From: Schmidtea polychroa
Lineage: Eukaryota
NCBI GenBank assembly: GCA_044892525.1
Contig: CM097887.1
Span: forward strand, 55,614,001 to 55,678,000
Direction of reading: 5' to 3'
DNA: 64,000 nt
Shown here: positions 3,516-58,705 of the stretch, piece after piece
Layout: each line of letters begins with the position of its first letter
Numbering within the stretch: position 1 is the stretch's first letter
Made by a program: the position numbers and the translations under genes
Notes under the pieces: generated by a model
Seen by the model: only the letters and a program-made list of their open reading frames with translations
Told to the model about the DNA's origin: nothing
Databases searched by the model: none

Positions 3516-6500
3516 TCAGAAATAAAAATTACCAGCTTGATAGATATCAGCCGGCAAAAATAGGGTTATTTTAGGAGATGAAAGATTTTTGTTGACATTA
3601 CTCGCGGGGAAAATGAAATTATCGGAATGGAAGGTGACAAAGTACAGGGTATCTGGCTGGCGATCGATATCGTTAATGAAGTTATCGAAAAGCGTATAGT
3701 CCTTGATTCTAGGATATATTTCCAGCTGACCGGATTTCATTTCCCGCTTCCGTTTCATTTTATTCATAATCACCGTATTGTCCCGGAATTTAGATTTCTT
3801 ATAAATCGATTCGAATTCTTTGTTGAAAATTTGGGATTTCAGTTTTGCGTTTTGTAATCGATCGTAAACCTTTACCGATTCCGCCTTGAATCTTAAACCC
3901 CAACTGTTGAGTTCTCTCGTCAATCTGAGAGTTTCGTTGATGTTCAATCCGCTTGTGTTGTTGCATATGTGACTGTTGAGAGCTTCCGATTCGGTGGCAT
4001 TCTCAAGGATGGAGAACAGAGTTCTACCGATTCGACTGTCACTGTCTGCGTGAGAAAGAAGAGATAGAGTTGTTTAGAATCGTATTTTATAATCAATAAT
4101 CACAACTTACTGACTAATTGTTTCCCAGAAAAGGAACTAGGAATAATTGGATAATCGTTTTTAAATATTGGAATATTTTTTTCGATTGGAGCTTTATAGA
4201 AGGATGAAACAATGGAATTCAATGAGTTGAAATTAAAGGTGAGAATGATAAATATTCCTAGAATGGTTGTTGATGCAGCTGTGGCTTTCAAGGCTTTACT
4301 TTTATTAATCGTTTCTGGACCTGGACGAATTACTGTTCAAATATTCAAATGAATTAATAATATTAATATAAAAAATTAATCAAATAAAATCACAATAATA
4401 AAATAATAATAAATATAAAAAAATANNNNNNNNNNNNNNNNNNNNNNNNNNNNNNNNNNNNNNNNNNNNNNNNNNNNNNNNNNNNNNNNNNNNNNNNNNN
4501 NNNNNNNNNNNNNNNNNNNNNNNNNNNNNNNNNNNNNNNNNNNNNNNNNNNNNNNNNNNNNNNNNNNNNNNNNNNNNNNNNNNNNNNNNNNNNNNNNNNN
4601 NNNNNNNNNNNNNNNNNNNNNNNNNNNNNNNNNNNNTTTATTAAAATTATTTATTCCTTGTTTCACTTTTTGCCTCTCTAAATCATAATAACGTTCTCGC
4701 CAAGTTTGAATATCTCGTTTCAATAATTGATTATCCTGTTCCAAAGCACTAAAACGTTCTCGAATATCATTAATTTGACTTTGTAAAAAATGATTTTCTT
4801 GTTTCTGTTGTTCCACTTTATGTTCCAATCTCTCGACATACTGAAATATATATATATATATATATAATTATTTCAATAAATTAACATATTTAATTTAATA
4901 AGTGGCAAGCACTCAAAAATCAATGAAATACTTCTTTTTTCCTCTGTCGACTCAAACTGGCAGCTTGGCGATTTTTAATCATTCTCTCTTGCTTTTTCAC
5001 CATCCGATCGTAATGATGGGCATCTAACACCCCATCGCAATTCGATAAAGTTTTATAAATCGAAGAGCTTTGAGTAACTTTATTTCCTTGGTTGGCATTG
5101 TAAATATCAATATACGATGGACAGTCGGGAGATTTGTAATCATCTATCATAGAAATGTCCATAAATGATGATTCATCTTTATTTTCATATAAATCGAAAT
5201 CGTGATAACTGGGAAATGAAGACAAATCATCATTAATGGAATCTTCTTTCAAAAATATATTATTGTTATTATTATTATCAGAAATAGAATTTTTGGAAGA
5301 AAACAAATCATAGCAGGAATCATTTTCATTTTTAATAGCTGCAGTTTTATTAGGAGTTTCATTGAGTTTGATTTGCTTGATGGCTTAATTGAATTAATAA
5401 TCAAAATTGTTATTAATATGAAATAAATGTTTAGAAATTATCAAAATATGGAGCAATTAATTACTTTTTCAGATTTATAATTGAGAAATTATTATTGATT
5501 TTGGAAATGTTTAAATAGGACAATCCTAAATTGGCATACTTTACTTTTAAATCTTATGCTTGCTGTACTTAAATTCTATTTTTTATACGGTTGCCGTAGT
5601 AACTCATGACATACTTATTTGCCTACGTTTCTATGGCCTATGTCTGATACATTTAGCTACTTCATTAATCGTTAAACGAAATCAAAGTTTGTATTTGTAT
5701 AAAAACTATCCTTCTCAGAATTTATATTGATTTATAATTATTATTTTCGTTAGCTAGACGCTGACACTTCTCCTTACGATGAGGAATAACAATAACAATA
5801 AAACATCGAACGCGCCGACAAACGTTCAATGCTTCATGTATTAAACCGCTACATTGTTGTCAAAATAGTCCTGGTTTCATGATTTTAAAGAAGAAATACA
5901 ATATTGGGAATATAAAACAGGTATTGCAAGTCGTGTTTTGAGTACTTTTCCGAAAATCAGAAAAATGGATTATTATTACGCGATTTATTATAATCTTCAT
6001 AAAAAATTATTAAAAATGAAATAAATTTAATAAGTTTAACTTGACCTTTAGATATATTAAAAAAAATCAAAATTATCCTACCGGAATTTTTTATTTCGTA
6101 ATAAGTAATTGGTTCCTTCTTAGAATTACTATCACTAACAATTACTGGAAATCCATCGTTACTTTTTAACAACTTTATTGGAGTTATCTTTGGAATTGTT
6201 TTTTGTAAATCCTAAAATATTATAACAAATAAATTAAAAATTAAAAATACTTTTTTGGTTTCAACAGTTTTAATAGACACAGAATGAGATTTGATAAAAT
6301 TTGGTTTTGAATTTTGGTAGTCAGAATCAACTACTTTTGGAATGATATTATAAATATGTTGCTTAACTTCTAAACCTTTTTTACTGATAAATGAGATTGG
6401 TCTTTTGACTAATTTATTTTCGTTTGATAAACAGAGTTTGCTATTTTCTGGTTTAACAACTGATACGCAGTTATTTAATTTGGAGATTTTTTCATGAGAT

Positions 6501-8475: not shown

Positions 8476-8971
8476 AGGGGAAAAACCTTCCTTATCCTCC
8501 CGAATTCTCCTAAGCTTCCTTCACGATTTGATATTCATCTCCCTTACGTGTGCCCATGATGATAAGTCATGTTGGTATTGGCACGCAGGTTGGAACTTGC
8601 GAACAGGTGAGCTCCTGTGTTAGAACTACTCTTCGCAACATTCACGGTACGGGTTCCTGAAGGCCGATAGAAGGACTTACATCTTTACACTGTCTGTCTG
8701 AGCTATGTCTCTATTTAATCCTCTATTTACCGGGACGTTAATAGGCATCAAGGAAAATTACAACTTCTCAACCAAACGCATACTTACAAGCATAAACACA
8801 AAGATCTTTTAATAAATTATATTCTACAGATAGTACAGAACGATGTTATTAAATCACGAAAGAATTTTCATGTTAATTGTCTGCTTTTATATCAAACGTG
8901 ATCGGCACGCTCAAGCAAGCAAGATGTCTTCGCTACAGAGGCGTGACGCTGGCTTACTTATATCGTTTCTC

Positions 8972-10057
8972 TGTTGGGGTTCAGTAGGAACCGGAATTGA
9001 AGGTTCGAAATTAAATAATAATTAATTAGAAGTATAACAAAAATAGTAATAAAAAATTACCGAAAATAGAAATTAAATACTAAAATTAAAACTAAAATAT
9101 AATTAGTAATAAATAATTACTAAAAATAAAACTATAGAAATTATTTAAAATATATAATAAAAATAGTAATTAAACAATTACTATTAATAGAATTATGGAA
9201 ATAAAATTTATATAAATACTAGTTAAAAATTAGATTACAGGAGGAGAAGAAATTAGAGACAAGAAAAATCAGAAGAGAATCCCTATAGTTATAAATAGAT
9301 ACGATCAGATCATTTTAATTCGGCATTCTTGACATTTAGAATTTAACCTAAAATTTTGGGAAATTTCATTTTGTCTATTGAATCAAGAAATTTCCATAGG
9401 AATATCGATCAAGAAATTAATTACTGGAATTATATTTATCACGAAATTCCTCGGAACCAAAGGATATTTTTATCAGGATTTTTCGCATCATCTATATAAT
9501 ATCGTAACTCCAATATCTATTGGAGTATTAATTAAAGTAAAAGGAAGAAATATTAGTAACCAGTTCGACAACCAATCTGTGGTTTCTCTGGCCCTTGTTG
9601 GAATAATTAATTAGTTAGTATTTTTGATTTGAAATAGATATATACATATAAATATTTTCATTTATTTAAATTAATATTAAAAGGGATTGCAACGTCAGCA
9701 CATATTTTTTGTAGTTGTTTCGTTTCAAATATAATTTAAAGAGTTAACCAATTTCTGGGTTGACTCTATAGCGTAAAATTTGGTGAACTACCCTGCTTCT
9801 TTTCCTTACACCTATATCGGGCTGTTGGCGCATTTAGGGCCAGCCTTGATTCGTAGAAATATTCTTCAGGGCGGTTTGAATAACCGTTTTCTTTACTTAG
9901 AAAAAGGCAGCGTGGTGTAAACGTGTAACTAACTTTTTATTGATAAATAAATATTTAAAACATATTTCTTATTTATTACCTATACGCATAAATTATTTAT
10001 TGGAGTCAGATAGAACGTTTTTGTGTTAGTTCGACTACCTACCCATCGAACCTAACA
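8972..10057 (+). repeat. 5' LTR
   Basis: TGTTGGGGTTCAG...CCTAACA; same length as 22812-23897, with about 4 substitutions seen by eye. Confidence 0.97.
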
Positions 10058-10060
10058 TTT

Positions 10061-10077
10061 TGGTGAGCCCGACGTGA
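10061..10077 (+). promoter_or_regulatory. Primer-binding site, tRNA-Trp
   Basis: TGGTGAGCCCGACGTGA lies 3 nt after the LTR. Its reverse complement TCACGTCGGGCTCACCA matches the animal tRNA-Trp 3' end (TCACGTCGGGGTCACCA) with one mismatch. Confidence 0.9.
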
Positions 10078-10156
10078 TAAAATTATCAGCGGGTAGATAT
10101 TGAAATAAAACAAAATAGCGTTAGGAACTAGAGCCAGAGTAAAACTGGATAATCAA

Positions 10157-11575
10157 ATGGCAGAGGAAGCTAATGTAAATGCATTTGCCAGATATCCCGC
10201 TCTGCCCGTAAAGGCATTCAGCGGTGATCCGGGAGAATTCCCAGAGTTTATGTCTGAATATTATCAGATGGCCAAAGCATATGCCTATCCAGATAATATC
10301 ATGATACAAAGGTTACCTATATATTTGAAGGGGCTGACAAGAGAAAAATATAACGATATAATGGCATTACCAGTTGCTCAAGCACCAAAAACATGGGCGG
10401 AAATGAGAGAACAAATGACTGCCCGAATATTGCCCGGAGATGCGGGAAGAATATTTAGACAACAATTTTATCATAGAAAACAGAATATCAATGAACATGT
10501 GGGGGAATTTGCACACCAGCTATCATTAATTGCTGAAAGAGCATTTGGACCAAAAACCACATGGGCAAAGTCAACAGAATTGTTAGTTAATGATCAGCTA
10601 TGGGCAGGACTTACTCCTACAATGAGGAACGCTCTAATATTACATACTAGTGATGATTTTGACGAATTGACACGGAAAGCTGTCGTAATTGAAAGCAGCT
10701 TGGAAAAGTCAACTATGTTCCTAGTAAACAGTGAAAGAACACCGGTAGAGTGTTTCAATTGCCATAGAAAAGGGCATATAGCGAAAGATTGTACCAGCAG
10801 GAAAAGTATGGACAATCGCAAAAGTATACAATGTACCAAATGTGGACGGAATAACCACGGTGCGGAAAATTGTAGAGTGCAGAATTTGCAATGCGAAAAA
10901 TGTAAACGTAAGGGACATGTGGCTGCAGTCTGCAAGACTAGAAGCCCTCAGAACAGCAATAATTTTAGCACAATTAAAAGAGATGATGTAAATTCATCAG
11001 GAAAGATAAAATGTCACGGATGTGGGAAATTCGGACATATGATGAGGTCATGTCCTCAGAATCAGAGTGGAAATACGGGTCAGTTCAATAAAAATACCGA
11101 TAAGGCTAATGTGAACAAGCCTAAGACAACTTTTATGGTTAACCAGGATCAAGGGTTAACTTATCTGCAACAACTGGAAATGGAAATCCAGGAGGAAAAG
11201 AATAGGTTGGCTAGATTAACCGACCAAGAAGGTACCATCTTTATGGTAGAAGTTGGAAGAGATGAATTTCTCAGAAAAAAGGACTCCGTTAGGGAGGACC
11301 TTCAGGAAACGGAATCAGAGGAGAGTTCCGATGATGAACCTAGTATGCCCACCATACTAAGCGAGTTCGATAGAACCTTGCCAGGGAAAGCAAAGGTAAA
11401 AGAAGGGTCAGATACCCTAACAAAATGTTTAAAACTGGTGGATTCCAGATATGAGTACCAGCAGAAGCTGGCCAGACAATTGGGAAAATTGGGAGAAACA
11501 GAAATTAAAATTCATGAAATCGATACAGTAGTAAAACTGATATCGCAGGTCGAAGAAGTATCCAAAATATCATAA
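10157..11575 (+). CDS. gag: Gag (capsid plus four CCHC zinc knuckles); ends at a +1 frameshift
   Basis: Retrotransposon gag-like N-terminus (F.G.P.EF..F...Y...A.A...LP.YL.G); CX2CX4HX4C four times (CFNCHRKGHIAKDC, CTKCGRNNHGAENC, CEKCKRKGHVAAVC, CHGCGKFGHMMRSC). Confidence 0.93.
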   Translation: MAEEANVNAFARYPALPVKAFSGDPGEFPEFMSEYYQMAKAYAYPDNIMIQRLPIYLKGLTREKYNDIMALPVAQAPKTWAEMREQMTARILPGDAGRIFRQQFYHRKQNINEHVGEFAHQLSLIAERAFGPKTTWAKSTELLVNDQLWAGLTPTMRNALILHTSDDFDELTRKAVVIESSLEKSTMFLVNSERTPVECFNCHRKGHIAKDCTSRKSMDNRKSIQCTKCGRNNHGAENCRVQNLQCEKCKRKGHVAAVCKTRSPQNSNNFSTIKRDDVNSSGKIKCHGCGKFGHMMRSCPQNQSGNTGQFNKNTDKANVNKPKTTFMVNQDQGLTYLQQLEMEIQEEKNRLARLTDQEGTIFMVEVGRDEFLRKKDSVREDLQETESEESSDDEPSMPTILSEFDRTLPGKAKVKEGSDTLTKCLKLVDSRYEYQQKLARQLGKLGETEIKIHEIDTVVKLISQVEEVSKIS

Positions 11576-11825
11576 CGACACGTACAAAATCCTAAGGAAA
11601 TTAGGAAAACTCATGGAACATGAGTGGAATCTCCAAGATGCCCAGCTCAATATAAAACTCCCACAGGATAGAGAGTATAATCTCGATATAAATGTAAGAA
11701 GTCGAGCCGATAAATTAATGGAAACGTTGACAAGTATTAAGCATCAAGGATATGACTTATACTTATGTGGAATAAAATAAGAAGCAAACCAAACACTTCT
11801 ACAGAACGGGATACTCCCAGGTAGA

Positions 11826-14800
11826 GTGACTAAGCTCACAGCAAAGAGAGCACAAAAGCCAGTAGCAGTAATGGATCAAGATAGCGTATTCTTGATTACT
11901 CAAATGGAAATAGAGAGTTTGGAAGAAACTCAACAATTAACCCACCGACTAGGGTTGGAATTGCAGAAATCTCCACGAGATGGAGAAACTATAAAGGAAA
12001 TACTGGACTGGATGTTAGTATTACGAATACCAGTAGATTTGTTGGAAGCAATAATTCCACTTATACTACCAGTGGTAAAGGAAACAAGCCCATTCCAGAC
12101 GCAAATCGAAGCGCTGATGAGGAAAAATGGGAAAGCTATCCGAAGTCAGCCTGATAGACAAGGCAACATTAATCTAGACGTGCGAATGATGGGAAAAGAA
12201 CCATTAACAATGATTTATAATTGTTATATCAAGGTCAAAATATTGAGGAGAGATGTGATTGCCACCGATCAAACTACAGGTATATTTCTGATAATGGTCC
12301 ATGGTAGGCAAGTTGATGATGATGAGTATCTAGTGGATGTGGGTTGTCTACCGTTGGCAACAACCACGGTAATGATCATCCCAGTAACTCCACCGGAGTC
12401 CCAGTGGTCACTAATGAGACTTCCAGATATAGCAAACGAAATTGTGGAAGAGATTGAGGAAATAAGGCTAGAGGAAATTAATCCCTGTCAAATGGTGGAC
12501 ATTGACGAGGAAGATTACTTCTCAGAGTACGTCAGATTAAATCCAGGAGAAACAAACGTAGGAGCTACTACGTCACAAGCTATAACAAATCCGGAGACTG
12601 AAAAACCTCCGGAGAAAGTGAAAAAAGATGGACGAGGACGTCCTAGAAAGGATCAAATGAAACCTCCACCCAAGGAGCAGTTAAATCCGGAAACGATTCG
12701 GAAAATTCAGTTAAAAACATTAGCAGGGATAGCTCAAGAAATGGACGACCAGGCGGGAGATGAGACAACGTCAGAAAGGTCGTTATTGTGGCAACGTATA
12801 CAACAAATGATCGGGATTATCAGGCCCGAATGGAGAATTTCAAAAACCAAGGGGATCGAAGTTAAGAAGATAACAAAAGAAGTCAAAAAGTCAATGGATA
12901 GGATATCCAAAGATGTATCAACAGGAGATATTCAGGATACCATAGAAGCATTCGTACAGCAAGGATTAACAAGAGGGAAAGTGTTAACATCACTATCATT
13001 GTTAATTCAAAATGCCTTAGCCCGAGTATGGGATGATAAAAAGCTTATAGAACGAGAAATCGATCAAATAGTCGAAATGGTAGATTATTACCTGGAGGTA
13101 TGGATGACCGTAAACAAATTTTGGGAAAAGGAAATTATTCCAAAACCACGATATGAAGTCGTGGAAGAAGCCATAAATAATGGTAGTTCAGGCACAGGAA
13201 ACATGACAAGCATGATCCTGATGTTCCTAGTAATGATGGGCATATTAAAACAAACAAATTCATTAACAGTATTTGACTGTGGAAATCCCAAATTATCTCG
13301 GGTATATTCGCTAGTAGATGCAATTGAGTGCAAAGAGGCGTATCCCGAGAAGGTCCAGCAAGGGGAAAAGGTAGAATATTATGTCTACCAAGAGAGTGAA
13401 TTCTATAGAACTACGATAAAGGAATGTAGAGTTCAGAGAGCTACATTCGAATATTATTGCGGTAGTAATAGCTATTCTGCTTTTCTATCCGCGACATTAA
13501 TACCAAGGCCGGTAAACATAATGCCCGAAGATTGCTTAGATGCATTTCGAAAAGGAAGTGTGAGGATAGACAACGAGGTATCAATCTCAGCAGAAATCGG
13601 GAAAACATTGGGAATAACAATCACTAGAGGAGGAACCATTGCCTCAGATGGAACATGCGAAGGTAGAAAGAAAATTCGCGGTAGCAATTTAGTTTCCTAT
13701 GTGGTAGACATAGAAGATTACTCAGTGGAGCTACGAGAATACGAGGGAACATTCGATGTGGCCACAGGAAAATTGATGGCACATCCGCAATGCAATGCCA
13801 AGTTCGGTAGTTGTAAAACGGGAACCACTACATTAATTTACGAACAAATGAGAGATCATTGTGAGTTGGCTTTTCTCAAGAAAATTCCTTTAGGAAAACT
13901 AAATGGAACTAAATATCGGGATTCCCGGAATCCACAAAAGGTTTGGGATAAAGCAAAAACGTTGAAGAAAATCAACAAACAAGAGAAGGAAGATATTGGA
14001 GAGGAAAACACACCTCTAGTATTGATATCGGAAGATAAGACGGAAGCAATTCGATTTGTCCGAAAAGATAAAAAGACTAAATGTGGGAAAAGAGTATACG
14101 AGACGAACTACAAAGGAATTTTTCTGTCAAGAGAATATATTCGAAATTCCAAGGTCCTCCATGTAAAGGATATCAAAATCACGAATTATATAAATAATAA
14201 AGTAGATTATTTATATCATGACTTGCAAGGACAAATGCAAGATATGTATCAAGAGGTGATACTAAACGATTGCAAGCTAAATCGTGAAATAGTTCGAAAT
14301 AGATTAGCAATATCTATCGTTAACCCAGAGTTGGTTACTCCAATGTTATTGGAAGATGGAATGTTTGGTAGAATCATGGGAGAAGCTATATATAGCTATG
14401 AGTGTAAACCAGTGGAAGTACAATTAGCCAGGTTTAATCAATGCACTTTAGAACTGCCAGTGTCTTACCAAGGAAAATTGAGATTTGTTATGCCAGTAAC
14501 CAGAAAGTTACTTGAGGAAAACGCTAAACCCCAACCAGCTATATGCAACCCGGCAATATCACCATTATACAAAATAAATGACATGTGGATATCTCTTCCG
14601 GAAAGAAAACCATCTACACGACAAGTAGAGACCTTGGAGGTAACTAAGTTAAAAGATAATATGGAATTCAAGTCATTAGACGAATTAGCAAAAGGAGGGA
14701 TTTATACTCCCGACGATATCGAGGAAGCAAGAAGGACATTGCTATTCCCACAAATCAGAGACAGAGGTATCACGGAAATTATAAGAACAATTTATCATGA

Positions 14801-16460
14801 TAGCTTAATCAGACCAGACTACAATTTATTATTTGGACCGGAACACTATAAAGAAGCAGCAAAGAACGTGATGATGAAAATATGGGGACGATTCACCAAT
14901 TTTGGTATTTTCGTCGCGGGATGTTCAGGAATTTACGCAATATTTGTAATTTTAAAGCTGATAATTACACAACTGATGTCAACATATAGCATATTCAAAA
15001 TTGGAGGATGGTCATGGAAACTGCTATTAGGACTATGTCCTATGTGTGCAGAGTTTGCATTATTCAAACATCACAGAAAGGAAATTAAAGAAATTAGACA
15101 GAAACATTTGGTCAAGCATGAAGTAATTGGAACAGAAATGGAGGAGTATTCTAGTTATCGGGACGATAACAATTCAAAGGGAGGAGGTAATGGAGGCTCT
15201 CGTGAAACATCTTCAAGATCAAATCAATCACGAAAACAGAACTACAACAAAAAACCGAATCAGCAACAAAGAAAATCGAGATTTAAGGAATATCTTCCTC
15301 CATATGACCAATCAAAGGAAATCTACGGGAGAAAACAATCCTCAGAAGGAGAATATGACAGTTCCGACCAAAAATTCGACATAAGGTCACCCAGATTTAA
15401 GAAAAGTCCAAGATATGTACAATTGCCAACTTTGAGGAGTTTACCATCCGCACCAAACGAAGGGCGGGAACATTCAAGGGAAACAACACTCAGAACAGGA
15501 CGACACCAATGGAAAATCGGTGAAGATACCATATTTAATAATCTGACATGTTCAACATTGCCAGAATTACCTAAAGTGCATTATCCAAAGGAAGCGTTAG
15601 AATCAATTAAAGCTAAATTTAAAGAGTATAATCCTCAACTGAGTGATCCTGAATTACTGGAAGCAGAACAAACGAGAGCAAATACAATCGGTATCTCGCA
15701 TGATACTATCTTGATGGTCAATAACCCAGTGAACTTGGATAAAAAGCCAATGATAAAAATAAGAGTGAACCGACATACAGTTAATGCGGTGATAGACTCA
15801 GGAGCAGACGGTACCATAATAGAAGCTAAATTGTTAAACCATCATGAACTGCAGTCGCTAAAACCGGCAGGAGTAAAATTAACAGGAGCAAACGGATCAT
15901 CATTAAACGTAATAGGGTCATTATCCTGCCAGATTAAGCTATGTGACCAGGAGCTCCATCACGACATCATAGTGATGAGAAGTCTCCCAGCCGAATGTCT
16001 ATTGGGTATGGACGTTCTAAAAAGACTACGAGGAGTAGTATTCGATTGTGCATCTGGATTGTTAATCCGAGCACGAGGTAAAAAGAGAAAAATTTACAAC
16101 GATGATACAGCTTATATAGATCATACAACTATCATACCACCCAGAGCAGAAACAGTATGCTTTGTAGCTACAAGCAATAATTGGGAAGGGGAAGTTGTAT
16201 TTGAACCAGACGAAAGATTTTCGGAGAAATACAATATACCAGTTACGCATAGCGTTGGTTTAATAGTCAATGGCAGAATACCAATCAGGGTAGCCAATCT
16301 GGACATTAAACCACTGTACTTATATCCAGATACCAGAGTGGGCAGAATCTGGAAACAAAACGAACCACAAGCCACGAGAGAAGGGTCGATACTCACCGTA
16401 AAGGCAGAAGAAAGAGATCCAGACATTGAGTACTATGATGCTCCTACAGCAAATATTTGA
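11826..16460 (+). CDS. 1544-aa ORF: Gag-linker + chuvirus-like glycoprotein + aspartic protease
   Basis: The frame is open upstream to ~11541 apart from TAA 11778. It contains an AT-hook-like GRGRPRK, an internal signal peptide, a Cys-patterned ectodomain, a TM region, then VIDSGADG protease. Confidence 0.9.
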   Translation: MTKLTAKRAQKPVAVMDQDSVFLITQMEIESLEETQQLTHRLGLELQKSPRDGETIKEILDWMLVLRIPVDLLEAIIPLILPVVKETSPFQTQIEALMRKNGKAIRSQPDRQGNINLDVRMMGKEPLTMIYNCYIKVKILRRDVIATDQTTGIFLIMVHGRQVDDDEYLVDVGCLPLATTTVMIIPVTPPESQWSLMRLPDIANEIVEEIEEIRLEEINPCQMVDIDEEDYFSEYVRLNPGETNVGATTSQAITNPETEKPPEKVKKDGRGRPRKDQMKPPPKEQLNPETIRKIQLKTLAGIAQEMDDQAGDETTSERSLLWQRIQQMIGIIRPEWRISKTKGIEVKKITKEVKKSMDRISKDVSTGDIQDTIEAFVQQGLTRGKVLTSLSLLIQNALARVWDDKKLIEREIDQIVEMVDYYLEVWMTVNKFWEKEIIPKPRYEVVEEAINNGSSGTGNMTSMILMFLVMMGILKQTNSLTVFDCGNPKLSRVYSLVDAIECKEAYPEKVQQGEKVEYYVYQESEFYRTTIKECRVQRATFEYYCGSNSYSAFLSATLIPRPVNIMPEDCLDAFRKGSVRIDNEVSISAEIGKTLGITITRGGTIASDGTCEGRKKIRGSNLVSYVVDIEDYSVELREYEGTFDVATGKLMAHPQCNAKFGSCKTGTTTLIYEQMRDHCELAFLKKIPLGKLNGTKYRDSRNPQKVWDKAKTLKKINKQEKEDIGEENTPLVLISEDKTEAIRFVRKDKKTKCGKRVYETNYKGIFLSREYIRNSKVLHVKDIKITNYINNKVDYLYHDLQGQMQDMYQEVILNDCKLNREIVRNRLAISIVNPELVTPMLLEDGMFGRIMGEAIYSYECKPVEVQLARFNQCTLELPVSYQGKLRFVMPVTRKLLEENAKPQPAICNPAISPLYKINDMWISLPERKPSTRQVETLEVTKLKDNMEFKSLDELAKGGIYTPDDIEEARRTLLFPQIRDRGITEIIRTIYHDSLIRPDYNLLFGPEHYKEAAKNVMMKIWGRFTNFGIFVAGCSGIYAIFVILKLIITQLMSTYSIFKIGGWSWKLLLGLCPMCAEFALFKHHRKEIKEIRQKHLVKHEVIGTEMEEYSSYRDDNNSKGGGNGGSRETSSRSNQSRKQNYNKKPNQQQRKSRFKEYLPPYDQSKEIYGRKQSSEGEYDSSDQKFDIRSPRFKKSPRYVQLPTLRSLPSAPNEGREHSRETTLRTGRHQWKIGEDTIFNNLTCSTLPELPKVHYPKEALESIKAKFKEYNPQLSDPELLEAEQTRANTIGISHDTILMVNNPVNLDKKPMIKIRVNRHTVNAVIDSGADGTIIEAKLLNHHELQSLKPAGVKLTGANGSSLNVIGSLSCQIKLCDQELHHDIIVMRSLPAECLLGMDVLKRLRGVVFDCASGLLIRARGKKRKIYNDDTAYIDHTTIIPPRAETVCFVATSNNWEGEVVFEPDERFSEKYNIPVTHSVGLIVNGRIPIRVANLDIKPLYLYPDTRVGRIWKQNEPQATREGSILTVKAEERDPDIEYYDAPTANI
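13203..15065 (+). CDS. env: Envelope-like glycoprotein domain, chuvirus-G / class III fusion protein-like (within the 1544-aa ORF)
   Basis: Signal-like MTSMILMFLVMMGILKQTNS. Motifs FDCG..SL...EC, C......YYCG, G...DGTCEG, YINNKVDYL...Y..V....C.L, G...GEAIY...C.PVEV......C..ELPV, GGIYT.DD...., and C-terminal hydrophobic WGRFTNFGIFVAGCSGIYAIFVILKLII...GWSWKLLLG follow the chuvirus-type glycoprotein pattern as I recall it. Confidence 0.8.
15735..16060 (+). CDS. Retropepsin-like aspartic protease domain
   Basis: PMIKIRVNRHTVNAVIDSGADGTII (Asp codon 15795), flap GANG, and CLLGMDVL motif. Confidence 0.92.
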
Positions 16461-19400
16461 AGTGCTAACCAGAAAGGAAAACATTCAAGTAAATATGCTG
16501 TTGAGGAAATATGACCAGGTATTCGCGAAACATGAATACGATCTGGGAAAAACAAACCTGTTAGAACATGAGATTGTTCTCACCAATACAAAACCTATAA
16601 AGTTGAGACCATACCGTATTCCATTCAGTCTGGAGGAATCAGTAGATAAACAGGTGAAATTGATGTTAAAACATGGCATAATCAGACATAGTAAATCACC
16701 ATATCAGTCACCAATGATAGTGGTGGCCAAGAAGGATGGATCAGTACGATTATGTAACGACTATCGCATGGTTAACGAAGCAACATGCAAAGATAGCCAT
16801 CCATTGCCATTGTTAGATTATATCTATGGACGCATGAGGAATGCTAGGTTCTTCTCAGTAATGGACGCTCAAAAGGGATTTTATCAAATTAAGCTAAAAG
16901 ATGAGACTATACCAATAACAGCATTTTCTACGAGTATGGGCCATTACGAATATAACGTAATGCCATTTGGACTCACCGGAGCTCCAGCCACATTTCAAAG
17001 AGCAATGAATTTGATGCTCATGGATGTACATCATGCGATGGTATACATTGACGACATCATAGTATTCTCGCCAAATTTGGAAAAACACTTGGAACATTTG
17101 GAAGATGTGTTCAAGAGGTTGATCAATGCCAACATGAAAGTGAAACCAACCAAATGTAAATGGGCCGAACCAGAAGTGGTATATGTTGGCCATATTATAT
17201 CACGAGACGGGGTTAAACCCGATCCAGCTAATGTCGAAAAGGTAAAGAATTTCCCGGAGCCTAAAACCGTTAAACATATCAAAGGGTTTTTAGGTCTAGT
17301 TGGATACTACAGAAAATTCATTAGAAACTTTTCGGTTATAGCTTTCCCACTCACGCAGTTAGAAGGCAAAAATGTCAAATTTGTGTGGGGAACAGAACAG
17401 CAAGAAGCATTTGATATGCTCAAGGAAAGACTCATCAAGCCACCTATATTGCGATTCCCAGACTTTGAGAGACAATTTTTGGTTATGACAGATGCCAGCA
17501 CTCGGGGCATAGGTGCTGTGTTAGGTCAAAGAGATGACCTAGGGGACGAGTATGCAATTGCATACGCTAGCAGAGGGTTAAAACCACACGAGAAAAACTA
17601 CGCAATGATAGAACTAGAGGCTTTAGCAATTGTGTATGCTATAACCCAGTTTAGGACTTATCTATGGGGTTGAAAGATCATAGTGTATACCGATCATAGA
17701 CCATTACAGTGGCTGACGAAACACACAATGGATACATCAAAACTGGTCAGATGGGCATTAATTTTACAGCCATATGACATAGAAATCCATTATAGAAAAG
17801 GAGATCATAATGGAAATGCAGACGCTTTATCGAGAATGGACCAGGAGGAGGAAGCAGAAGATGTGAAGGAAGGACGTCTCGAAGGGACTATCTTCACACT
17901 GACTCGAGAAGCCAACCGGCTAGTTGATTTAATGGAGGCACAAAAAGCTGATGAAGAAATCAATGCCATTCGACAAGCCTTAGAAGCGAAATACGTGCCC
18001 ACAGAATTCACGAAATACTGGGAAAAGAATAAAGATAAATTTGTGCTGGAAGAGGGATTAGTTAAATATTCAGATATACGAGATAACATTATAATGGTTC
18101 CTAAGAAATACCGTGAAGCACTCATGTTGCAGTATCACGATGGAGCCTTAGGAGGCCACCTGTCATCTAGAAAAACATTGTCGAGGTTAAAACAAAAATA
18201 TTTTTGGCCCGGTATGAAACAAGATGTTAAAACCTGGTGTCAGACATGTAAGATCTGTATCACCAGAAGAAATACCGGAAAGAAACCACACGTACCGATG
18301 AAGCCGATGCCAGTACCATCTACACCTATGGAAATGACGGCAATGGACGTGTTGGGGCCATTCAAAGAATCTAATAGCGGAAACAAGTACATATTAGTTT
18401 TCTGCGATTACTTGACTAAGTGGCCAGAAGCCTACCCGATGCCTAATCACAAAGCTGATACAATAGCTAGAATTTTCGTTGAACAAATTGTCTTTAGGTA
18501 TGGAGTACCTACGAAGCTATTAACAGATCGAGGAGCTGATTTCATGAGTAATTTGCTCAAAGGAATAAATGATTATTTCGGAGTTCTAAAGTTGAACACT
18601 TCCCCATATCACCCACAGACGGATGGCCTAGTAGAGCGATTTAATGGAACATTAGCTAATATGTTAGCATCATATGTAAATTCAGGGCAAACGGATTAGG
18701 ACATCCACATTCCATCCTGTTTATTTGCATACAGGAATGCAGTACACGAGGGAACAGGTGAAACGCCATTTTACCTAATGTACCTAAGGCAAAGTAAAAT
18801 GCCAGTAGATCTGTTGTTTTTCCCTAAAGCAACAAAGTATTTAGATCAGGAAGATTATCTAATGGAAATGAGGGAAAGAATGCAGGAAGCATGGACTAGA
18901 GCAGGTCTCAGTATAAAATACAATCAGGAGGCATCCAAAGATTATCATGACCGAAAAGCCAAGGATCATGGCATATTGGTTGGAGACCAGGTGATGTTGG
19001 AAAGTCATTATAACAAGAAAGGCTTATCACCAAAACTCATGCGAAATTTCAAAGGGCCATACGAGGTATTGAGAACCACAGACACAAATCTCATATTACA
19101 ACTTGTAGCCAACAGAAAAGCAGAACCAATAATGGTACATGCTAATCGGTGTAAAAAGTGCGAAATCTCAACAAAGGGAACCTCGGGAAATTCAAAAGTA
19201 AAAGCACCAGAGAAACAAGTGAAACTAAACACTACCGAAGAACCACAAGAGCACCGATACCCATTGAGATCACGGGGTGTTCCAAAATCGGTAACCTTTT
19301 TGTTGATAATAAGCGGTATGATGACTTTAGCAATGGCAAAAAGGGATAGAAAGGCATATTTTCAGCCTATGGCTATGCAAGTGGAACACTTACATTTTAT

Positions 19401-20220
19401 AAGAACGTATCACGGAATTAGCATACTCACAACATGCGATAATGCCACAAAATTCAATTTACATTTCTACAACAGGTACTTGCGGATCCGTCAACTCGAT
19501 TCAGAAGAAAAAGAGTGGGATTTATATGATTTAAAAGCAGAGACGGATTATAAACTGCATATTGCAGCGTCACGGTTATATCGGAATGGTTGGTATACCT
19601 ATCACGTATCAAATTGGATCCTACGGACGGCAGATTTCACAAATCGCATATCGATTTCCTACGAAAGGGATAAAGTAAAGTTTAGCCAGCAAATTAACAG
19701 GGAGGAGAAAGTGAAAATCAGCATTCGAGACGGATCAATCACGAGAGGAACATTATGGTTAGACCAGAACTCTCCCTCCCAGGAAATGTATCTAAATCAG
19801 TCAGTAGAATATTCGGTTTTAGTTATATACTATAGTCCGAGGAAACGGGAAGACGATAGGTGTTTCGAGGTATTTGAAGAGATTCTACCTCTGAAACAGC
19901 CTGTTATAACGAAAATACCACCAAAAGTAGTCAGAGAGAACATGGTGATACATCCCGAAATGTGGCAACATCTTAGACAATTGTCACCTATCAAACAAAT
20001 ATCTTGTCAAACGCCCCCAAACCTGACAAACTGTTGTGATTGTAATGCCATCACAAACTTTAATGCAGGATATATCCTGAAAATACCCGTAGGGGTATGG
20101 GTTACGGTATCGGCCGTACTATCGCTAGTAACTACACTGATAGCTATGGGTATTTGGACCAAGCTATATTTTAGACAAGCCATAAGAGCTTACGATGGAG
20201 TACTGATGTCGCAATTATGA
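16426..20220 (+). pseudogene. pol: pol RT-RNase H-integrase plus C-terminal membrane protein; one frame, interrupted by TGA 17671 and TAG 18697
   Basis: RT: RLCNDYR, MPFGL.GAP.TFQR, YIDD at 17044. RNase H: VMTDAS, ELEALAIV, YTDH. IN: H-X-GH...CQTC, MDVLGP, LLTDRG, GLVERFN, FKGPY. ORFs 16426, 17683 and 18778 share a frame. Confidence 0.95.
19291..20220 (+). CDS. Type-I membrane protein fused in frame to the integrase C-terminus (possible FN3-like ectodomain)
   Basis: Hydrophobic signal-like VTFLLIISGMMTLAMA; FN3-like LYDLKAETDYKLHIAA; Cys cluster NCCDC; TM IPVGVWVTVSAVLSLVTTLIAMGIW; short tail. Confidence 0.65.
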   Translation, partial: VTFLLIISGMMTLAMAKRDRKAYFQPMAMQVEHLHFIRTYHGISILTTCDNATKFNLHFYNRYLRIRQLDSEEKEWDLYDLKAETDYKLHIAASRLYRNGWYTYHVSNWILRTADFTNRISISYERDKVKFSQQINREEKVKISIRDGSITRGTLWLDQNSPSQEMYLNQSVEYSVLVIYYSPRKREDDRCFEVFEEILPLKQPVITKIPPKVVRENMVIHPEMWQHLRQLSPIKQISCQTPPNLTNCCDCNAITNFNAGYILKIPVGVWVTVSAVLSLVTTLIAMGIWTKLYFRQAIRAYDGVLMSQL

Positions 20221-20346
20221 CAATTACAGACTCCCCCGAGGGAAAAATCATATATAAATATTTATATATATATTAAAATCTATATTTACGTAGAGCTCCA
20301 GGTAGCATTAAAATTCAGCATATGTAGATCTTTTATAATAAGACTC

Positions 20347-22035
20347 ATGCATATCTTTTTAGCCTATTATGGCATATCAGTATATCTGATATTATGGTTA
20401 ATGATTTTTATTTCAGGAATGCAGAGCCATCCAATATCTCAATACCAAGGAAGACATAGCATTATACGTGCTACGACCTTGCTAAAGGAAAAACTTATTT
20501 ACAAAAACCTGGAGAAGCAGGTTATGGAGCAAGGTAGAAAAGGCCAAAGGCACTGGTTTTACGGTCATTGTTCAGGCATACCCAATAATTTCAAATTTGA
20601 CGAGGCTCCAAAGCGTCAAATGATTATCTCCAGAATCCCGGGTAAGCATAACGGTAGTATTAGGCTTACCGAGGTCATGCCTGAGTTTGGTAGACATAGT
20701 CTGACCAACCACCTGTGGATACACGCCATTAACAAACCAATTACGGTTTATGTTCCTGGCGCCACAAACCCTATTTTGCTACAAAAGCACACTACCCTCG
20801 AAATAGAAAACGGGGACGGAAGGGAAAAGAACATCTCACTGTTATGTGAAGGTATAGATACCATCATAGCAATGGAAATCCTGGAACCTCACAGAGAAGC
20901 ACAAACAAGATGGGTTAATGACCCAAACTGGACATATAATGTCAACGATAACGACATTAAAACATTTAAGTCCTTTGTTAGACAGCGTTTGGACCCTAGA
21001 CAAGATGACAACCTCACCATTTTCGTAGCAGCTCACTATGCTACACTACGACAATTCCTGAAACCGGCAATCGTGGCCATTTCAATCTTACATTTCAATG
21101 GCGATTTGATACTCAACACGAGAGTCACCCCCAGAGCACAGGTCAAACATTACCAATCGCATGCGCATGGTATGACCGAGAAAGAAATAATAGGACAGTT
21201 CGACGGAGAAGACTGTGCCGAACGAATCAGGAAAATCTGCGATGGGAAAATCATCGTGGGATTGCTAGTTAAGGACCTACTAGAAGTTATTAGATTCCCA
21301 ATGCAGCGCGCTCTCGGAATCCGTGAGTTAGGCGCAGCTAAATGTCTCGAAAGTAGGGACCTAAAGAAATGCAACTGGTATTACCGTTTGGCATATTTGG
21401 CAAAGGCAGTCACCGGTAAAGAAGCACATCACTTCTCGGATCTTCAAACGGAGAGTGATGTAACTACCATCAAGGAGATTTACGATAATCTACGGGACAT
21501 CTGGGTCGACGACATTTCACCGGACACCCGGAAAGAGGTGGTGTCTTCACAAATCAAGCAGATGGAACCCGGTACCTCAAGCAGGCAGAAACCACTAGCT
21601 ATGGAGAGCTATGTGAAAGAAGATATCCCCAGGACGAAGTTGTTGAAAATAGTGGAAGAAGATTCCTTGTCGCCGCCAGCCATTTCAATCGCTGATGAAG
21701 ACGACTATGCCACTTGTGAGAGTGCAGACGATAACTGCCTCCAAGTCACCCTTACCAATGACGGTAGAGTGGTGAATTCGGCTAAAATGGAAGTAGAAAA
21801 ACCCCAGCCAGCAGAAAAGTTAGTTGAACGGGTCACCAAGATCCTGAAAGCATTGGCCCCGTTGGGTGAACCCAAACAAGGAGCTGAAGGGGGAACATTA
21901 CCCCAAGCGGTGGCACCATTACTCAAGCTACAAGACTTGAAGTTTAAAAAGAGACCAACGGAGAAACCCCCCCCAGAAAGAGGACAAGGAGAAAAATGTT
22001 CCTACCTCTACAAAGAGGAAAACGGAGATTCCTAA
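20347..22035 (+). CDS. Accessory ORF3 containing a degenerate REX4/ISG20-like DEDDh exonuclease domain (~21015-21490); probable true start ATG 20419
   Basis: AISILHFNGDLILNTRVTPRAQVKHYQSHAHGMTEKEIIG...RIRKICDGKIIVG aligns by eye with REX4-like RVSIVN..G.VLYD..V.P...V.DYRT..SGI....L.......V..IL.G.ILVG. The catalytic DxE is absent. Confidence 0.7.
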   Translation: MHIFLAYYGISVYLILWLMIFISGMQSHPISQYQGRHSIIRATTLLKEKLIYKNLEKQVMEQGRKGQRHWFYGHCSGIPNNFKFDEAPKRQMIISRIPGKHNGSIRLTEVMPEFGRHSLTNHLWIHAINKPITVYVPGATNPILLQKHTTLEIENGDGREKNISLLCEGIDTIIAMEILEPHREAQTRWVNDPNWTYNVNDNDIKTFKSFVRQRLDPRQDDNLTIFVAAHYATLRQFLKPAIVAISILHFNGDLILNTRVTPRAQVKHYQSHAHGMTEKEIIGQFDGEDCAERIRKICDGKIIVGLLVKDLLEVIRFPMQRALGIRELGAAKCLESRDLKKCNWYYRLAYLAKAVTGKEAHHFSDLQTESDVTTIKEIYDNLRDIWVDDISPDTRKEVVSSQIKQMEPGTSSRQKPLAMESYVKEDIPRTKLLKIVEEDSLSPPAISIADEDDYATCESADDNCLQVTLTNDGRVVNSAKMEVEKPQPAEKLVERVTKILKALAPLGEPKQGAEGGTLPQAVAPLLKLQDLKFKKRPTEKPPPERGQGEKCSYLYKEENGDS

Positions 22036-22051
22036 GAGCACGAAAAAGAAG

Positions 22052-22510
22052 ATGCCTAGGATATCCATCCAAGATGAGGATGACGATCTCCTAGAAACCC
22101 ACTATCAGCCACCAGATCCTGCGTTGACCAAGATATTGGCAACAAAGAGTGAACCCACGATTTCAGGAGAGCCTATTATCATAAAGGAAGGCGAGTTCGT
22201 CGGAAGGGGCAATTCGATTAAAATACGGGAAGATCTCGACAGAGAAGATCCTAGTTGGTGGCAGAGACCCGACAGCAAATGGAAACCGCGTATCAAGGAA
22301 TACGACGGAGGCTTAATCCATGAAGTAGCCATATCCAATTTCCCCGATTACGGAGTATTGGAGGCTAATGAGGGCTCGTACATTATCTCCTCAATTGTGT
22401 ACAAAGAGGTAAGTACACGGGAGACTTTGGTGGTCAGTTACAGACCTGACATTGTAGAACAAAGGATCCGTAACGAAAGTGCCAAGGTCATGAAAAGGAG
22501 AAAATACTAG
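22052..22510 (+). CDS. Accessory ORF4, 152 aa, unknown function
   Basis: Intact ATG-started ORF 16 nt after the ORF3 stop, inside the element; basic C-terminus MKRRKY. Confidence 0.6.
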   Translation: MPRISIQDEDDDLLETHYQPPDPALTKILATKSEPTISGEPIIIKEGEFVGRGNSIKIREDLDREDPSWWQRPDSKWKPRIKEYDGGLIHEVAISNFPDYGVLEANEGSYIISSIVYKEVSTRETLVVSYRPDIVEQRIRNESAKVMKRRKY

Positions 22511-22796
22511 CAATTCGGCTATGTGTTCAATGGACCTAGCAATTTGCTATACGTCCTCAATCCCAACACCTTCGACAACTCAATCCAATCCAAATATTCA
22601 GATTGATAGACATTATGAACAACATTTGATAAATCTGATTTTTAATTTTGTTTAACCATCTTTGAGTTTGACTTTGATTACTTTATGTATATACATTTTA
22701 TTCAGTCGTTTTATTTTATTTTTATATTTTTTTAATTTTATGTATTGGCTGCAATTGTCTTATCTTTACCGCTTTAATTTTCGGGACGAAAATCTT

Positions 22797-22811
22797 GTTA
22801 GGGGGAAGACA
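22797..22811 (+). promoter_or_regulatory. Polypurine tract
   Basis: GTTAGGGGGAAGACA immediately before the 3' LTR. Confidence 0.85.
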
Positions 22812-23897
22812 TGTTGGGGTTCAGTAGGAAACGGAATTGAAGGTTCGAAATTAAATAATAATTAATTAGAAGTATAACAAAAATAGTAATAAAAAATTAC
22901 CGAAAATAGAAATTAAATACTAAAATTAAAACTAAAATATAATTAGTAATAAATAATTACTAAAAATAAAACTATAGAAATTATTTAAAATATATAATAA
23001 AAATAGTAATTAAACAATTACTATTAATAGAATTATGGAAATAAAATTTATATAAATACTAGTTAAAAATTAGATTACAGGAGGAGAAGAAATTAGAGAC
23101 AAGAAAAATCAGAAGAGAATCCCCATAGTTATAAATAGATACGATCAGATCATTTTAATTCGGCATTCTTGACATTTAGAATTTAACCTAAAATTTTGGG
23201 AAATTTCATTTTGTCTATTGAATCAAGAAATTTCCATAGGAATATCGATCAAGAAATTAATTACTGGAATTATATTTATCACGAAATTCCTCGGAACCAA
23301 AGGATATTTTTATCAGGATTTTTCGCATCATCTATATAATATCGTAACTCCAATATCTATTGGAGTATTAATTAAAGTAAAAGGAAGAAATATTAGTAAC
23401 CAGTTCGACAACCAATCTGTGGTTTCTCTGGCCCTTGTTGGAATAATTAATTAGTTAGTATTTTTGATTTGAAATAGATATATACATATAAATATTTTCA
23501 TTTATTTAAATTAATATTAAAAAGGATTGCAACGTCAGCACATATTTTTTGTAGCTGTTTCGTTTCAAATATAATTTAAAGAGTTAACCAATTTCTGGGT
23601 TGACTCTATAGCGTAAAATTTGGTGAACTACCCTGCTTCTTTTCCTTACACCTATATCGGGCTGTTGGCGCATTTAGGGCCAGCCTTGATTCGTAGAAAT
23701 ATTCTTCAGGGCGGTTTGAATAACCGTTTTCTTTACTTAGAAAAAGGCAGCGTGGTGTAAACGTGTAACTAACTTTTTATTGATAAATAAATATTTAAAA
23801 CATATTTCTTATTTATTACCTATACGCATAAATTATTTATTGGAGTCAGATAGAACGTTTTTGTGTTAGTTCGACTACCTACCCATCGAACCTAACA
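22812..23897 (+). repeat. 3' LTR
   Basis: Near-identical to 8972-10057 and followed by TSD TCTC. Confidence 0.97.
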
Positions 23898-24690
23898 TCT
23901 CCTTCTGTCAACATGGCGTCGATATCTACTTGCAAATAAGGATCATGCTGAAAAATGGATGTAGTTGAAGGGATCATTCGATAAGAGTCTTTGGTAACAG
24001 GCACGATAGAGTTATTACTGGACACCTTAGCACTCGCCTCTTGAGCTGCGAACAAGGAGGCTTCTAGTGCTGCCATTTCGTTTCGACGACATTGCGTTCG
24101 TTCAGCGCGAGTGGGTCGTTTCCTTTTCCTCGAGTTAGTATTTACTGGGTCAAGCGAGACAATTCAGCCAATGTAGATACTGGAGGGAAATTGACGCGAG
24201 AATCATCACTCAAGATAGGGGCGATGATTGGTGGAAGTTCGGATCCGTGTCCATGACACTTTGATGGAGGCAAGATGGTGACTTCGTCTGTCTGGTGATG
24301 GATCGTGAAGACCTTCGATTTATCTATCACTGGATACTCCTTAACGCGATTCCGCAATTCGGATTCCGAGTAGATTTGATGGAGCGCCTCCCATTGGGCT
24401 TTGAATGTGAGGCTTTGGCACCGATTTTCTTCTAAGAGGCTACGAGGGCAATGTTCTAGCCGTAATATTTTCATATTGGCCTCCTTCATTTGTGGCTGGG
24501 AGAACCAGTGTGTTCTAGCGTATCGATACGCTTTTTCAGAACCCCTATGTATGCTTTTAGTTTATCCATGGCGGCATTTTTATCGGCACATGAAAACAAG
24601 GTTTCGGGCCGCGGTTGAGTAGATTCGGCTCTGGCATACTTAAACGAGAGAAATGAAATCGGCATCGTAAGAACTAATCAACATATTTCC
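23898..24690 (-). pseudogene. Decayed long-form WFSP ORF; the big Gypsy element is inserted into it and the remainder lies at ~8500-8971
   Basis: Minus strand reads KKRIDTLEH(T)WFSQPQMKEANMKILRLE across a frameshift. The other flank carries the family's downstream motif (8602-8683). Confidence 0.65.
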
Positions 24691-44892: not shown

Positions 44893-45333
44893 TTATTCAT
44901 ATGATAGCTTCTCCTCTTTTTTGAATACAATCAACAACGAAATCATTGAAATCATTTCAATGATATAAAACGATATTTGAAAAGAACTCAGAATTAATTC
45001 AATTCTTAATACATAAGTTTGCCACAAACATATAAAAACAAATATTATCAGACAAAGCCCAGTTAATATAAAAGAATGAATTACTAATTTTACATTTTCA
45101 TCCAAATTAGATCTAACTGAATGATATAAACGTCCAATTTCACAGAATAATAATGAAAATAGAATTAATAATTCCAATATATATGCTTCGGGATGATATC
45201 TTAAATTTCTTTGTTTGTAAACAAATATCAAAATTTCAACTGAAAAATATAACAAATTGTACCACATATGGTAACATAAAAGCAAATGCACAAATCTTGA
45301 ACTTTTAACATTTTCAAAATATGCGGATTTCAT
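44893..45333 (-). CDS. tmem216: TMEM216 / MKS2 ciliary transition-zone protein (TMEM17 family), single exon
   Basis: SSRFVHLLLCYHMWYN..YF.VEILIFVYK...L.Y...EIGRLY....NL...LWQTYVLRIE matches TMEM216 (SSTPLEILFFLNGWYN..YF..ELFIFLYK; EVIRLF..KGNL; LLQTYVLRLE); four hydrophobic segments. Confidence 0.9.
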   Translation of the reverse strand: MKSAYFENVKSSRFVHLLLCYHMWYNLLYFSVEILIFVYKQRNLRYHPEAYILELLILFSLLFCEIGRLYHSVRSNLDENVKLVIHSFILTGLCLIIFVFICLWQTYVLRIELILSSFQISFYIIEMISMISLLIVFKKEEKLSYE

Positions 45334-45397
45334 TTTAAAATTTTAACAAAATATTACATTGAAAATATAATTTTAAAATAAAGTACTACAATAAACC

Positions 45398-58486: not shown

Positions 58487-58705
58487 CTTTAAAATCAATT
58501 ATTGTTATTCACAATTTGGGGGATAGGAATTGAGATCAGAGGGTTATAGTATTTTATATTGGGAAAATATATTTATAAAAACAATATCATTGATCAATTT
58601 TAAATAAATAAATTCAGTTTTGAAAATTATTAAATAATCTAAAAGGATAAAATAGATAATCAACCCGAAATAGTTTACAATCTCAGAAATAGAATAGTCT
58701 ATAGG

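Follow-up and report, generated by a model that had tools for sequence, protein, structure and literature searches.

The window analyzed here is a 64,000-nucleotide stretch of Schmidtea polychroa DNA (GenBank assembly GCA_044892525.1, contig CM097887.1, positions 55,614,001 to 55,678,000, forward strand). It contains a retroelement with two long terminal repeats (LTRs), whose features are collected in Table 1. A stop-free frame of 1,559 aa (11781-16460, + strand) contains the segment that the original prediction had flagged as a fusion glycoprotein (13203-15065, aa 475-1095), and the DSG protease indeed follows it in the same open reading frame (aa 1325-1415). The window copy carries five defects, namely breaks of the frame near 11.6, 16.4 and 22.0 kb plus in-frame stops at 17671 and 18697, and its Gag and Env are in different frames.

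Table 1. Features of the element in the window.
Feature	Position	Strand	Remark
Whole element	8972-23897	+	14,926 bp
Target-site duplication TCTC (4 bp)	8968-8971 and 23898-23901	+	flanks of the LTRs
5' LTR	8972-10057	+	1,086 bp, TG...CA; 4 mismatches to 3' LTR
Primer-binding site	10061-10078	+	pairs with the host tRNA-Trp(CCA) 3' end
Gag with CCHC zinc knuckles	10157-11575 (frame 10109-11575)	+	stops early at frame break in window copy
Gag-Env spacer	11781-13196	+	no Pfam match
Env, predicted fusion glycoprotein of class III (like chuvirus G and herpes gB)	13197-15065	+	profile, hydropathy, fold model, BLAST
Predicted internal signal sequence of Env	13197-13262 (hydrophobic stretch 13197-13265)	+	hydrophobic stretch
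Predicted Env membrane anchor	14898-14996	+	hydrophobic stretch
Charged low-complexity linker, predicted cytosolic	15066-15752	+	no Pfam match; pN/pS 0.08
Aspartic protease (DSG)	15753-16025	+	E 7e-13; shares Env's frame
Reverse transcriptase (YIDD) and most of RNase H	16402-17673	+	frame break before, stop after (window copy)
RNase H remainder, integrase (H2C2, rve), integrase C-terminal part	17674-19284	+	in-frame stop
Second predicted type I membrane protein, polyprotein end	19285-20220	+	signal-like stretch, ~260-aa outer domain, anchor, short tail
Signal-like stretch of second membrane protein	19285-19341	+	hydrophobic stretch
Predicted anchor of second membrane protein	20071-20169	+	hydrophobic stretch
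Splice-acceptor-like site (T-rich tract, AG)	20403-20416	+	two bases ahead of ORF2 ATG
Accessory ORF2	20419-22510	+	frame break near 22.0 kb in window copy; long tail
AlkB/2-oxoglutarate-oxygenase-like fold in ORF2	about 20422-20895	+	low-confidence model
ISG20/REX4-like exonuclease domain of ORF2	about 21020-21515	+
Polypurine tract	22800-22811	+	directly before 3' LTR
3' LTR	22812-23897	+	TG...CA

By its sequence features (LTRs, target duplication, primer site, polypurine tract, pol order and reverse transcriptase) the backbone is Ty3/Gypsy (Metaviridae), as had been read from the RT-RH-IN order and the YIDD motif. Pfam matches placed pol in the order PR-RT-RH-IN, and no Pao-type Pfam match was found in the element. 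The best solved-structure match of the reverse transcriptase (RT) was that of yeast Ty3 (E 2e-80), the best retroviral match reaching 9e-35. The primer site pairs with 15 genomic bases of tRNA-Trp plus the added CCA, and the pairing is exact in 9 of the 10 sister copies. The tRNA-Trp genes themselves were confirmed as a tandem array with a 284-base period (L024; G000:C4 from 55,022,433 on). The tRNA pattern had 856 matches in the genome, and those outside the array include primer sites of LTR elements; the first three matches were rejected as tRNA genes, and one of them (L021) reads as the primer site of another element.

Elsewhere in the window, a 767-codon frame at 58643-60946 (+) carries a zinc knuckle and resembles the Gag of related polyproteins. 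Its surroundings gave no match to Env or Pol, and it reads as a truncated relative. Likely host exons were found on the minus strand at 44896-45342 (Transmemb_17, E 1e-21) and 4920-5384 (bZIP, E 2e-5). Three pairs of repeated blocks (37458-38195/60900-61639, 39972-41096/42171-43305 and 7583-8151/54988-55555) are unrelated to the LTRs of the element.

The flagged segment is, on profile and model evidence, a chuvirus-like class III glycoprotein with a gB-like fold, a signal sequence and a C-terminal anchor, which bears out the original assignment. Its Pfam match to PF24664 (Monjiviricetes_fusion; E 7e-87, 292 bits against a cut-off of 27) is far beyond chance for a profile comparison, and BLAST aligned it with the glycoprotein of Tacheng tick virus 4 at 24% identity over 629 aa. 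An AlphaFold2 monomer model built from an 86-row alignment had a mean pLDDT of 89 and has the full class III fold. Among viral folds, this model matched chu-like glycoproteins best (E 1e-42, the six highest-ranking ones having TM 0.5-0.6), and its best solved-structure matches were herpesvirus gB (E 3e-15, TM about 0.40). Against solved structures, the Env sequence alone gave no useful match and the Env profile reached herpes gB at E 0.03 only. The expected architecture of an internal signal, a cysteine-patterned ectodomain and a C-terminal membrane region was recovered in the two hydrophobic stretches of Env and the 14 cysteines ahead of the second one. The Env alignment keeps a full fusogen-type ectodomain of ~540 aa together with its cysteines. 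The ectodomain has one N-glycosylation sequon, and the furin motif R-x-K/R-R is absent from the frame 11781-16460.

We scored 71 of 3,044 candidates from a genome search, window copy included, and all 71 matched at 92-100% identity and were spread over four large contigs. Frames of more than 3,000 codons were present in eight of them, and four were stop-free over 3,366-3,369 aa. Ten copies, picked for their long frames, were fetched, and each of them aligns collinearly with the window. In every one of the ten, the frame continues from the 3' part of Env into protease, RT and integrase; one of them has a stop inside Env. The claim that Env lies in frame between Gag and protease thus stands on the protease side in the window itself; on the Gag side it fails here and holds in sister copies, since Gag runs on into Env in 8 of the 10. 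In such copies, a single frame covers everything from Gag through the class III-type glycoprotein and the protease to RT, RNase H and integrase. The atypical position of Env was upheld, and it is a family trait, found with all 71 scored matches and again in a second family. This second family, located via ORF2, has the same layout in three of the four places fetched (the fourth holds only the 3' end of a third family), and it is 65% identical to the window in Env, 74% in RT and 54% in Gag.

The window copy has five breaks, and its LTR resembles the LTRs of six sister copies at only 75-86%; both could be taken as signs of a one-off insertion, a chimera or an assembly artefact. However, this explanation is refuted by the sister copies. 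The 71 matches on four large contigs speak against it, as do the second family and more distant relatives with the same order and the matching LTRs and target duplication of the window element itself.

LTR pairs were 98.7-100% identical in 13 of 13 copies, which argues for recent copying, and the window element is a young but damaged member of a Ty3/Gypsy family with many copies. The low LTR identity between the window and those six copies, with a middle part that is mostly unalignable, contrasts with internal DNA that is 94-97% identical to the window, suggesting that the LTRs are altered or exchanged at a higher rate than the coding part. Over the ten copies, the mean pN/pS against the window came to 0.06 (Env), 0.047 (RT), 0.057 (RNase H-integrase), 0.12 (Gag), 0.15 (second membrane protein) and 0.07 (ORF2), values that are not independent because all pairs share the window copy. 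Judged by these ratios, Env is under purifying selection as strong as that on RT. Between the two families, dS was saturated.

The original prediction had proposed an independent capture of the glycoprotein. A word-index homolog search found two relatives of Env, and a HMMER scan with Env found 1,424 proteins at E 0.001. Env is followed by protease in the same protein in 11 of the 15 long top matches scanned; among these 15 relatives, five continue to RT and four have a Gag feature ahead of Env. Identity between the window Env and the Envs within other polyproteins was 26-42% among the matches listed. We built a tree (FastTree) of 87 Env rows, comprising the window, the sister family and 85 relatives drawn from the 150 listed of the 1,424 matches. 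The window Env belongs to a group of 17 rows with support 99. Every one of the 15 polyprotein-labelled rows is in this group (for two of them the label rests on their length), together with two fragments; the two named chuvirus proteins and the stand-alone proteins of ~650 aa lie outside it. Our trees included these two named viruses and zero nematode elements. Eight elements had both genes, and each of the three well-supported splits in their RT tree was also present in the Env tree.

A recent capture of a chuvirus glycoprotein by a Gypsy lineage, giving an undescribed gene order, would be consistent with the nearest named viral matches of Env, which are chuvirus-like G proteins. However, Env groups with polyprotein Envs and apart from the named chuviruses, and its tree agrees with that of RT; as a recent event, the capture is very improbable. 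Because the Env and RT trees agree and selection on Env matches that on RT, Env is likely to be an old partner of this Pol lineage and not a fresh capture.

Several relatives showed features of their own. In P0003, P0004, P0005, P0006, P0013 and P0153 (the last 4,844 aa long), two to seven tandem aspartic-protease-like domains follow Env. P0007 is a full Env-PR-RT-RH-IN polyprotein; its record calls it a hypothetical protein from a Flavobacteriaceae genome bin, but it is probably animal DNA in a metagenome bin. P0015 (791 aa) combines an ion-channel domain with pieces like the element's spacer, Env and linker, and is perhaps a gene model spanning an insertion.

The gene order and the Env type are already in print, and the flagged finding as such adds little. 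Ty3/gypsy elements of GAG-ENV-POL order with gB-type Env have been described from Nematoda, Bryozoa and Platyhelminthes (Chary & Hayashi, eLife 2026, PMC13524379), in a paper that credits Sacco et al. (2022) for the nematode case. The order had been thought unrecognised, and it is found both there and in an earlier study (PMC6431247), a further point against a recent capture. On the other hand, elements with the GAG-ENV-POL order are not a single clade in the published Pol tree (PMC13524379), so that more than one origin of the order is possible. The view that class III glycoproteins were captured mainly by BEL/Pao elements has to be given up as well, since gB-type Env is described beside gypsy pol across animals (PMC13524379). 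According to the same source, the chuvirus-like gene known from BEL/Pao elements of mosquitoes (Dezordi et al. 2020) is found next to gypsy pol too.

Six such elements, Smed_errantivirus_1-6, were described in Schmidtea mediterranea, and they resemble the window element in gene order, in a chuvirus-like gB-type Env and in their multi-copy state (PMC13524379). The Env of Smed_errantivirus_4 agrees with that of the window in about 108 of the first 170 residues (~64%, counted by eye over the Env stretch only), an identity that also speaks against a recent independent capture. No LTR or tRNA is listed for these six elements (PMC13524379), whereas both were found in the window element, and the main text of that paper makes no mention of accessory, exonuclease or polyprotein. 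The window element almost certainly belongs to this published kind.

In one group of nematode elements, gag, env, pro and pol are reportedly joined in one continuous frame. These endogenous retroviruses of another phylum likewise have a metavirus backbone with an RNA-virus-type glycoprotein before pol (Sacco et al. 2022, J Gen Virol, doi 10.1099/jgv.0.001739, cited in PMC13524379). The chuvirus-like env of mosquito elements belongs to the same glycoprotein family, but the backbone there is BEL/Pao (Dezordi et al. 2020) and here it is Ty3-like. A similar layout is that of the giant gypsy-like Burro elements of planarians, in which Env in frame between Gag and Pol was called "the first case" (Arkhipova & Yushenova 2019, PMC6431247). 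Burro / GYPSM1 and the window family share a single polyprotein, an Env between Gag and protease, and CCHC knuckles, and matches to mononegavirus fusion glycoproteins were described for Burro (PMC6431247). Burro is, however, larger (>30 kb with a 4,873-aa ORF, against 14.9 kb and ~3,350 aa, the longest frame having 3,369 codons), and it carries MATH, BIR, ankyrin and dUTPase-like motifs for which the window element gave no such Pfam match. The section on Burro mentions no second membrane protein or exonuclease-like ORF (PMC6431247). A Bcl-2-like motif was described before the Burro Env (PMC6431247); in the window, the last part of the spacer (about 12720-13150) is weakly Bcl-2/BOK-like (BOK, E 0.2), and a Bcl-2 match lies ahead of Env in the relative P0001 (E 1e-3). 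A weak match to ubiquitin (E 0.03), a motif type likewise associated with Burro, was seen in the sister family only (copy L025). We regard the window element as Burro-like in layout and do not assign it to Burro.

The polyprotein appears to end in a second type I membrane protein after integrase. It had no Pfam match, and its ectodomain had no match among solved structures. A similar pair of hydrophobic stretches follows integrase in four relatives, with no significant sequence match between their tails and the protein of the window. The predicted cytosolic tail ends in S-Q-L, and the two endings seen in this protein, S-Q-L or E-T-E-V, are ones that we take to fit the class I PDZ-binding pattern.

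Behind the polyprotein, ORF2 forms a single frame of 756-762 codons in 8 of the 10 fetched copies; in the window and in copy L007 it is split at the same place (21941-22035), a break that was either inherited or recurrent at one site. ORF2 most likely starts at 20419, behind the predicted splice-acceptor-like site, and such a site precedes it in 3 of 3 families (that of the window and two diverged ones). It is likely that ORF2 is made from spliced RNA. A signal peptide at its start was rejected, as the sister family has not conserved that hydrophobic stretch, which overlies the splice-acceptor-like tract. Four runs taken as possible RNA proved to consist of contigs; one covers this region as evenly as DNA would, no splice-type junction appeared in them, and they carry no weight either way. 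Poly-A loose ends at 11479, 11488 and 15079 in one of them (X7) were also rejected as RNA ends; they lie at A-rich sites and probably reflect internal priming.

No homologues of ORF2 were found by word-index search. The overall ORF2 model was poor (pLDDT 44), and Foldseek with it gave nothing at E 0.001; only its residues 25-182 could be aligned with AlkB-type oxygenases (Z 10.4, rmsd 3.5, 151 aligned). The second domain resembles ISG20L2/RNase T-family exonucleases (E 0.005-0.008; Atlas score 0.91). An active DEDDh exonuclease carries a D-x-E pair in ExoI and a general-base His. In 3 of 3 families the ExoI acidic pair is absent, with A-H-Y or an equivalent in its place, and no His was found ahead of the last acidic residue of the ORF2 domain. 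As read from these residues, ORF2 does not have the active DEDDh motif, and it may have an RNA-binding, non-catalytic role. Juno and Vesta, LTR elements of bdelloid rotifers, likewise carry a 3' accessory ORF that belongs to an exonuclease family (Rodriguez et al. 2017, PMC5408684). Their ORF3 is DEDDy and RNase D-like with intact catalytic residues (PMC5408684), in contrast to the window ORF2, which is ISG20/REX4-like, has no acidic pair in ExoI and is linked with an AlkB-like fold.

The four hydrophobic stretches of Env and the second membrane protein are placed consistently with a polyprotein that would cross the ER membrane four times, with the Gag side cytosolic; three weaker ones, of which two lie in the spacer and one in ORF2, were judged non-membrane. 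The internal signal would direct Env to the lumen, and signal peptidase would free it from the Gag side. Small residues before the predicted cut sites fit the signal peptidase rule. The Env anchor would return the chain to the cytosol, so that protease, RT and integrase would remain there, and the second signal and anchor would export the second surface protein, leaving its short tail cytosolic. The element protease would release Gag and Pol. Budding particles may then carry trimers of Env and fuse with a further cell, probably of the stem or germ line, in which the cDNA would integrate with a 4-bp duplication. Env was probably inherited with Pol from an old lineage. We put the probability of this explanation as a whole, a family of known layout with enveloped spread and a four-pass polyprotein, at roughly 75%, and the part of it in which Env works as a particle fusogen is fairly likely.

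It should be noted that a single frame would yield equal amounts of Gag, Env and Pol, which is odd for a virion, and no sign of a Gag-excess mechanism was found. The single sequon of Env and the missing furin motif also count against the favored explanation. The equal output would favor a different role, in which Env bridges or fuses neighboring cells, or tethers the polyprotein to a membrane for intracellular capsid assembly, and no free particles are made. The second membrane protein with its short tail of PDZ-binding type would point the same way, and the entry mechanism of gB-type elements is called unknown in PMC13524379. A mere tether, however, would not be expected to keep a fusogen ectodomain and its cysteines at such a low pN/pS, and the full class III fold of the Env model also speaks against it. 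Overall, we consider a role without particles decidedly unlikely and prefer enveloped spread with Env as the fusogen.

It is possible, although somewhat unlikely as a joint reading, that the element combines two-glycoprotein entry and a spliced, RNA-shielding accessory protein with an RNA-virus-like polyprotein build. The protein at the integrase end would then supply the attachment or triggering role of herpes gD/gH/gL, and the AlkB-like/dead ISG20-like protein would bind the element RNA and shield it from decay or silencing. We did not find the second membrane protein or the AlkB-like/dead-exonuclease ORF in the literature searched, which included the two key papers (PMC6431247 and PMC13524379), although Grohme 2018, Jurka 2007 or published figures and supplements may describe them. 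For a compact member of the published group, the present analysis contributes the LTRs, the primer site for tRNA-Trp, data on selection and a topology model. If the second membrane protein is a partner of the fusogen, this would account for the working of a lone gB-like protein in the absence of the herpes co-factors, and the conserved AlkB-like/dead-exonuclease protein would represent an accessory factor of a kind new to retroelements.
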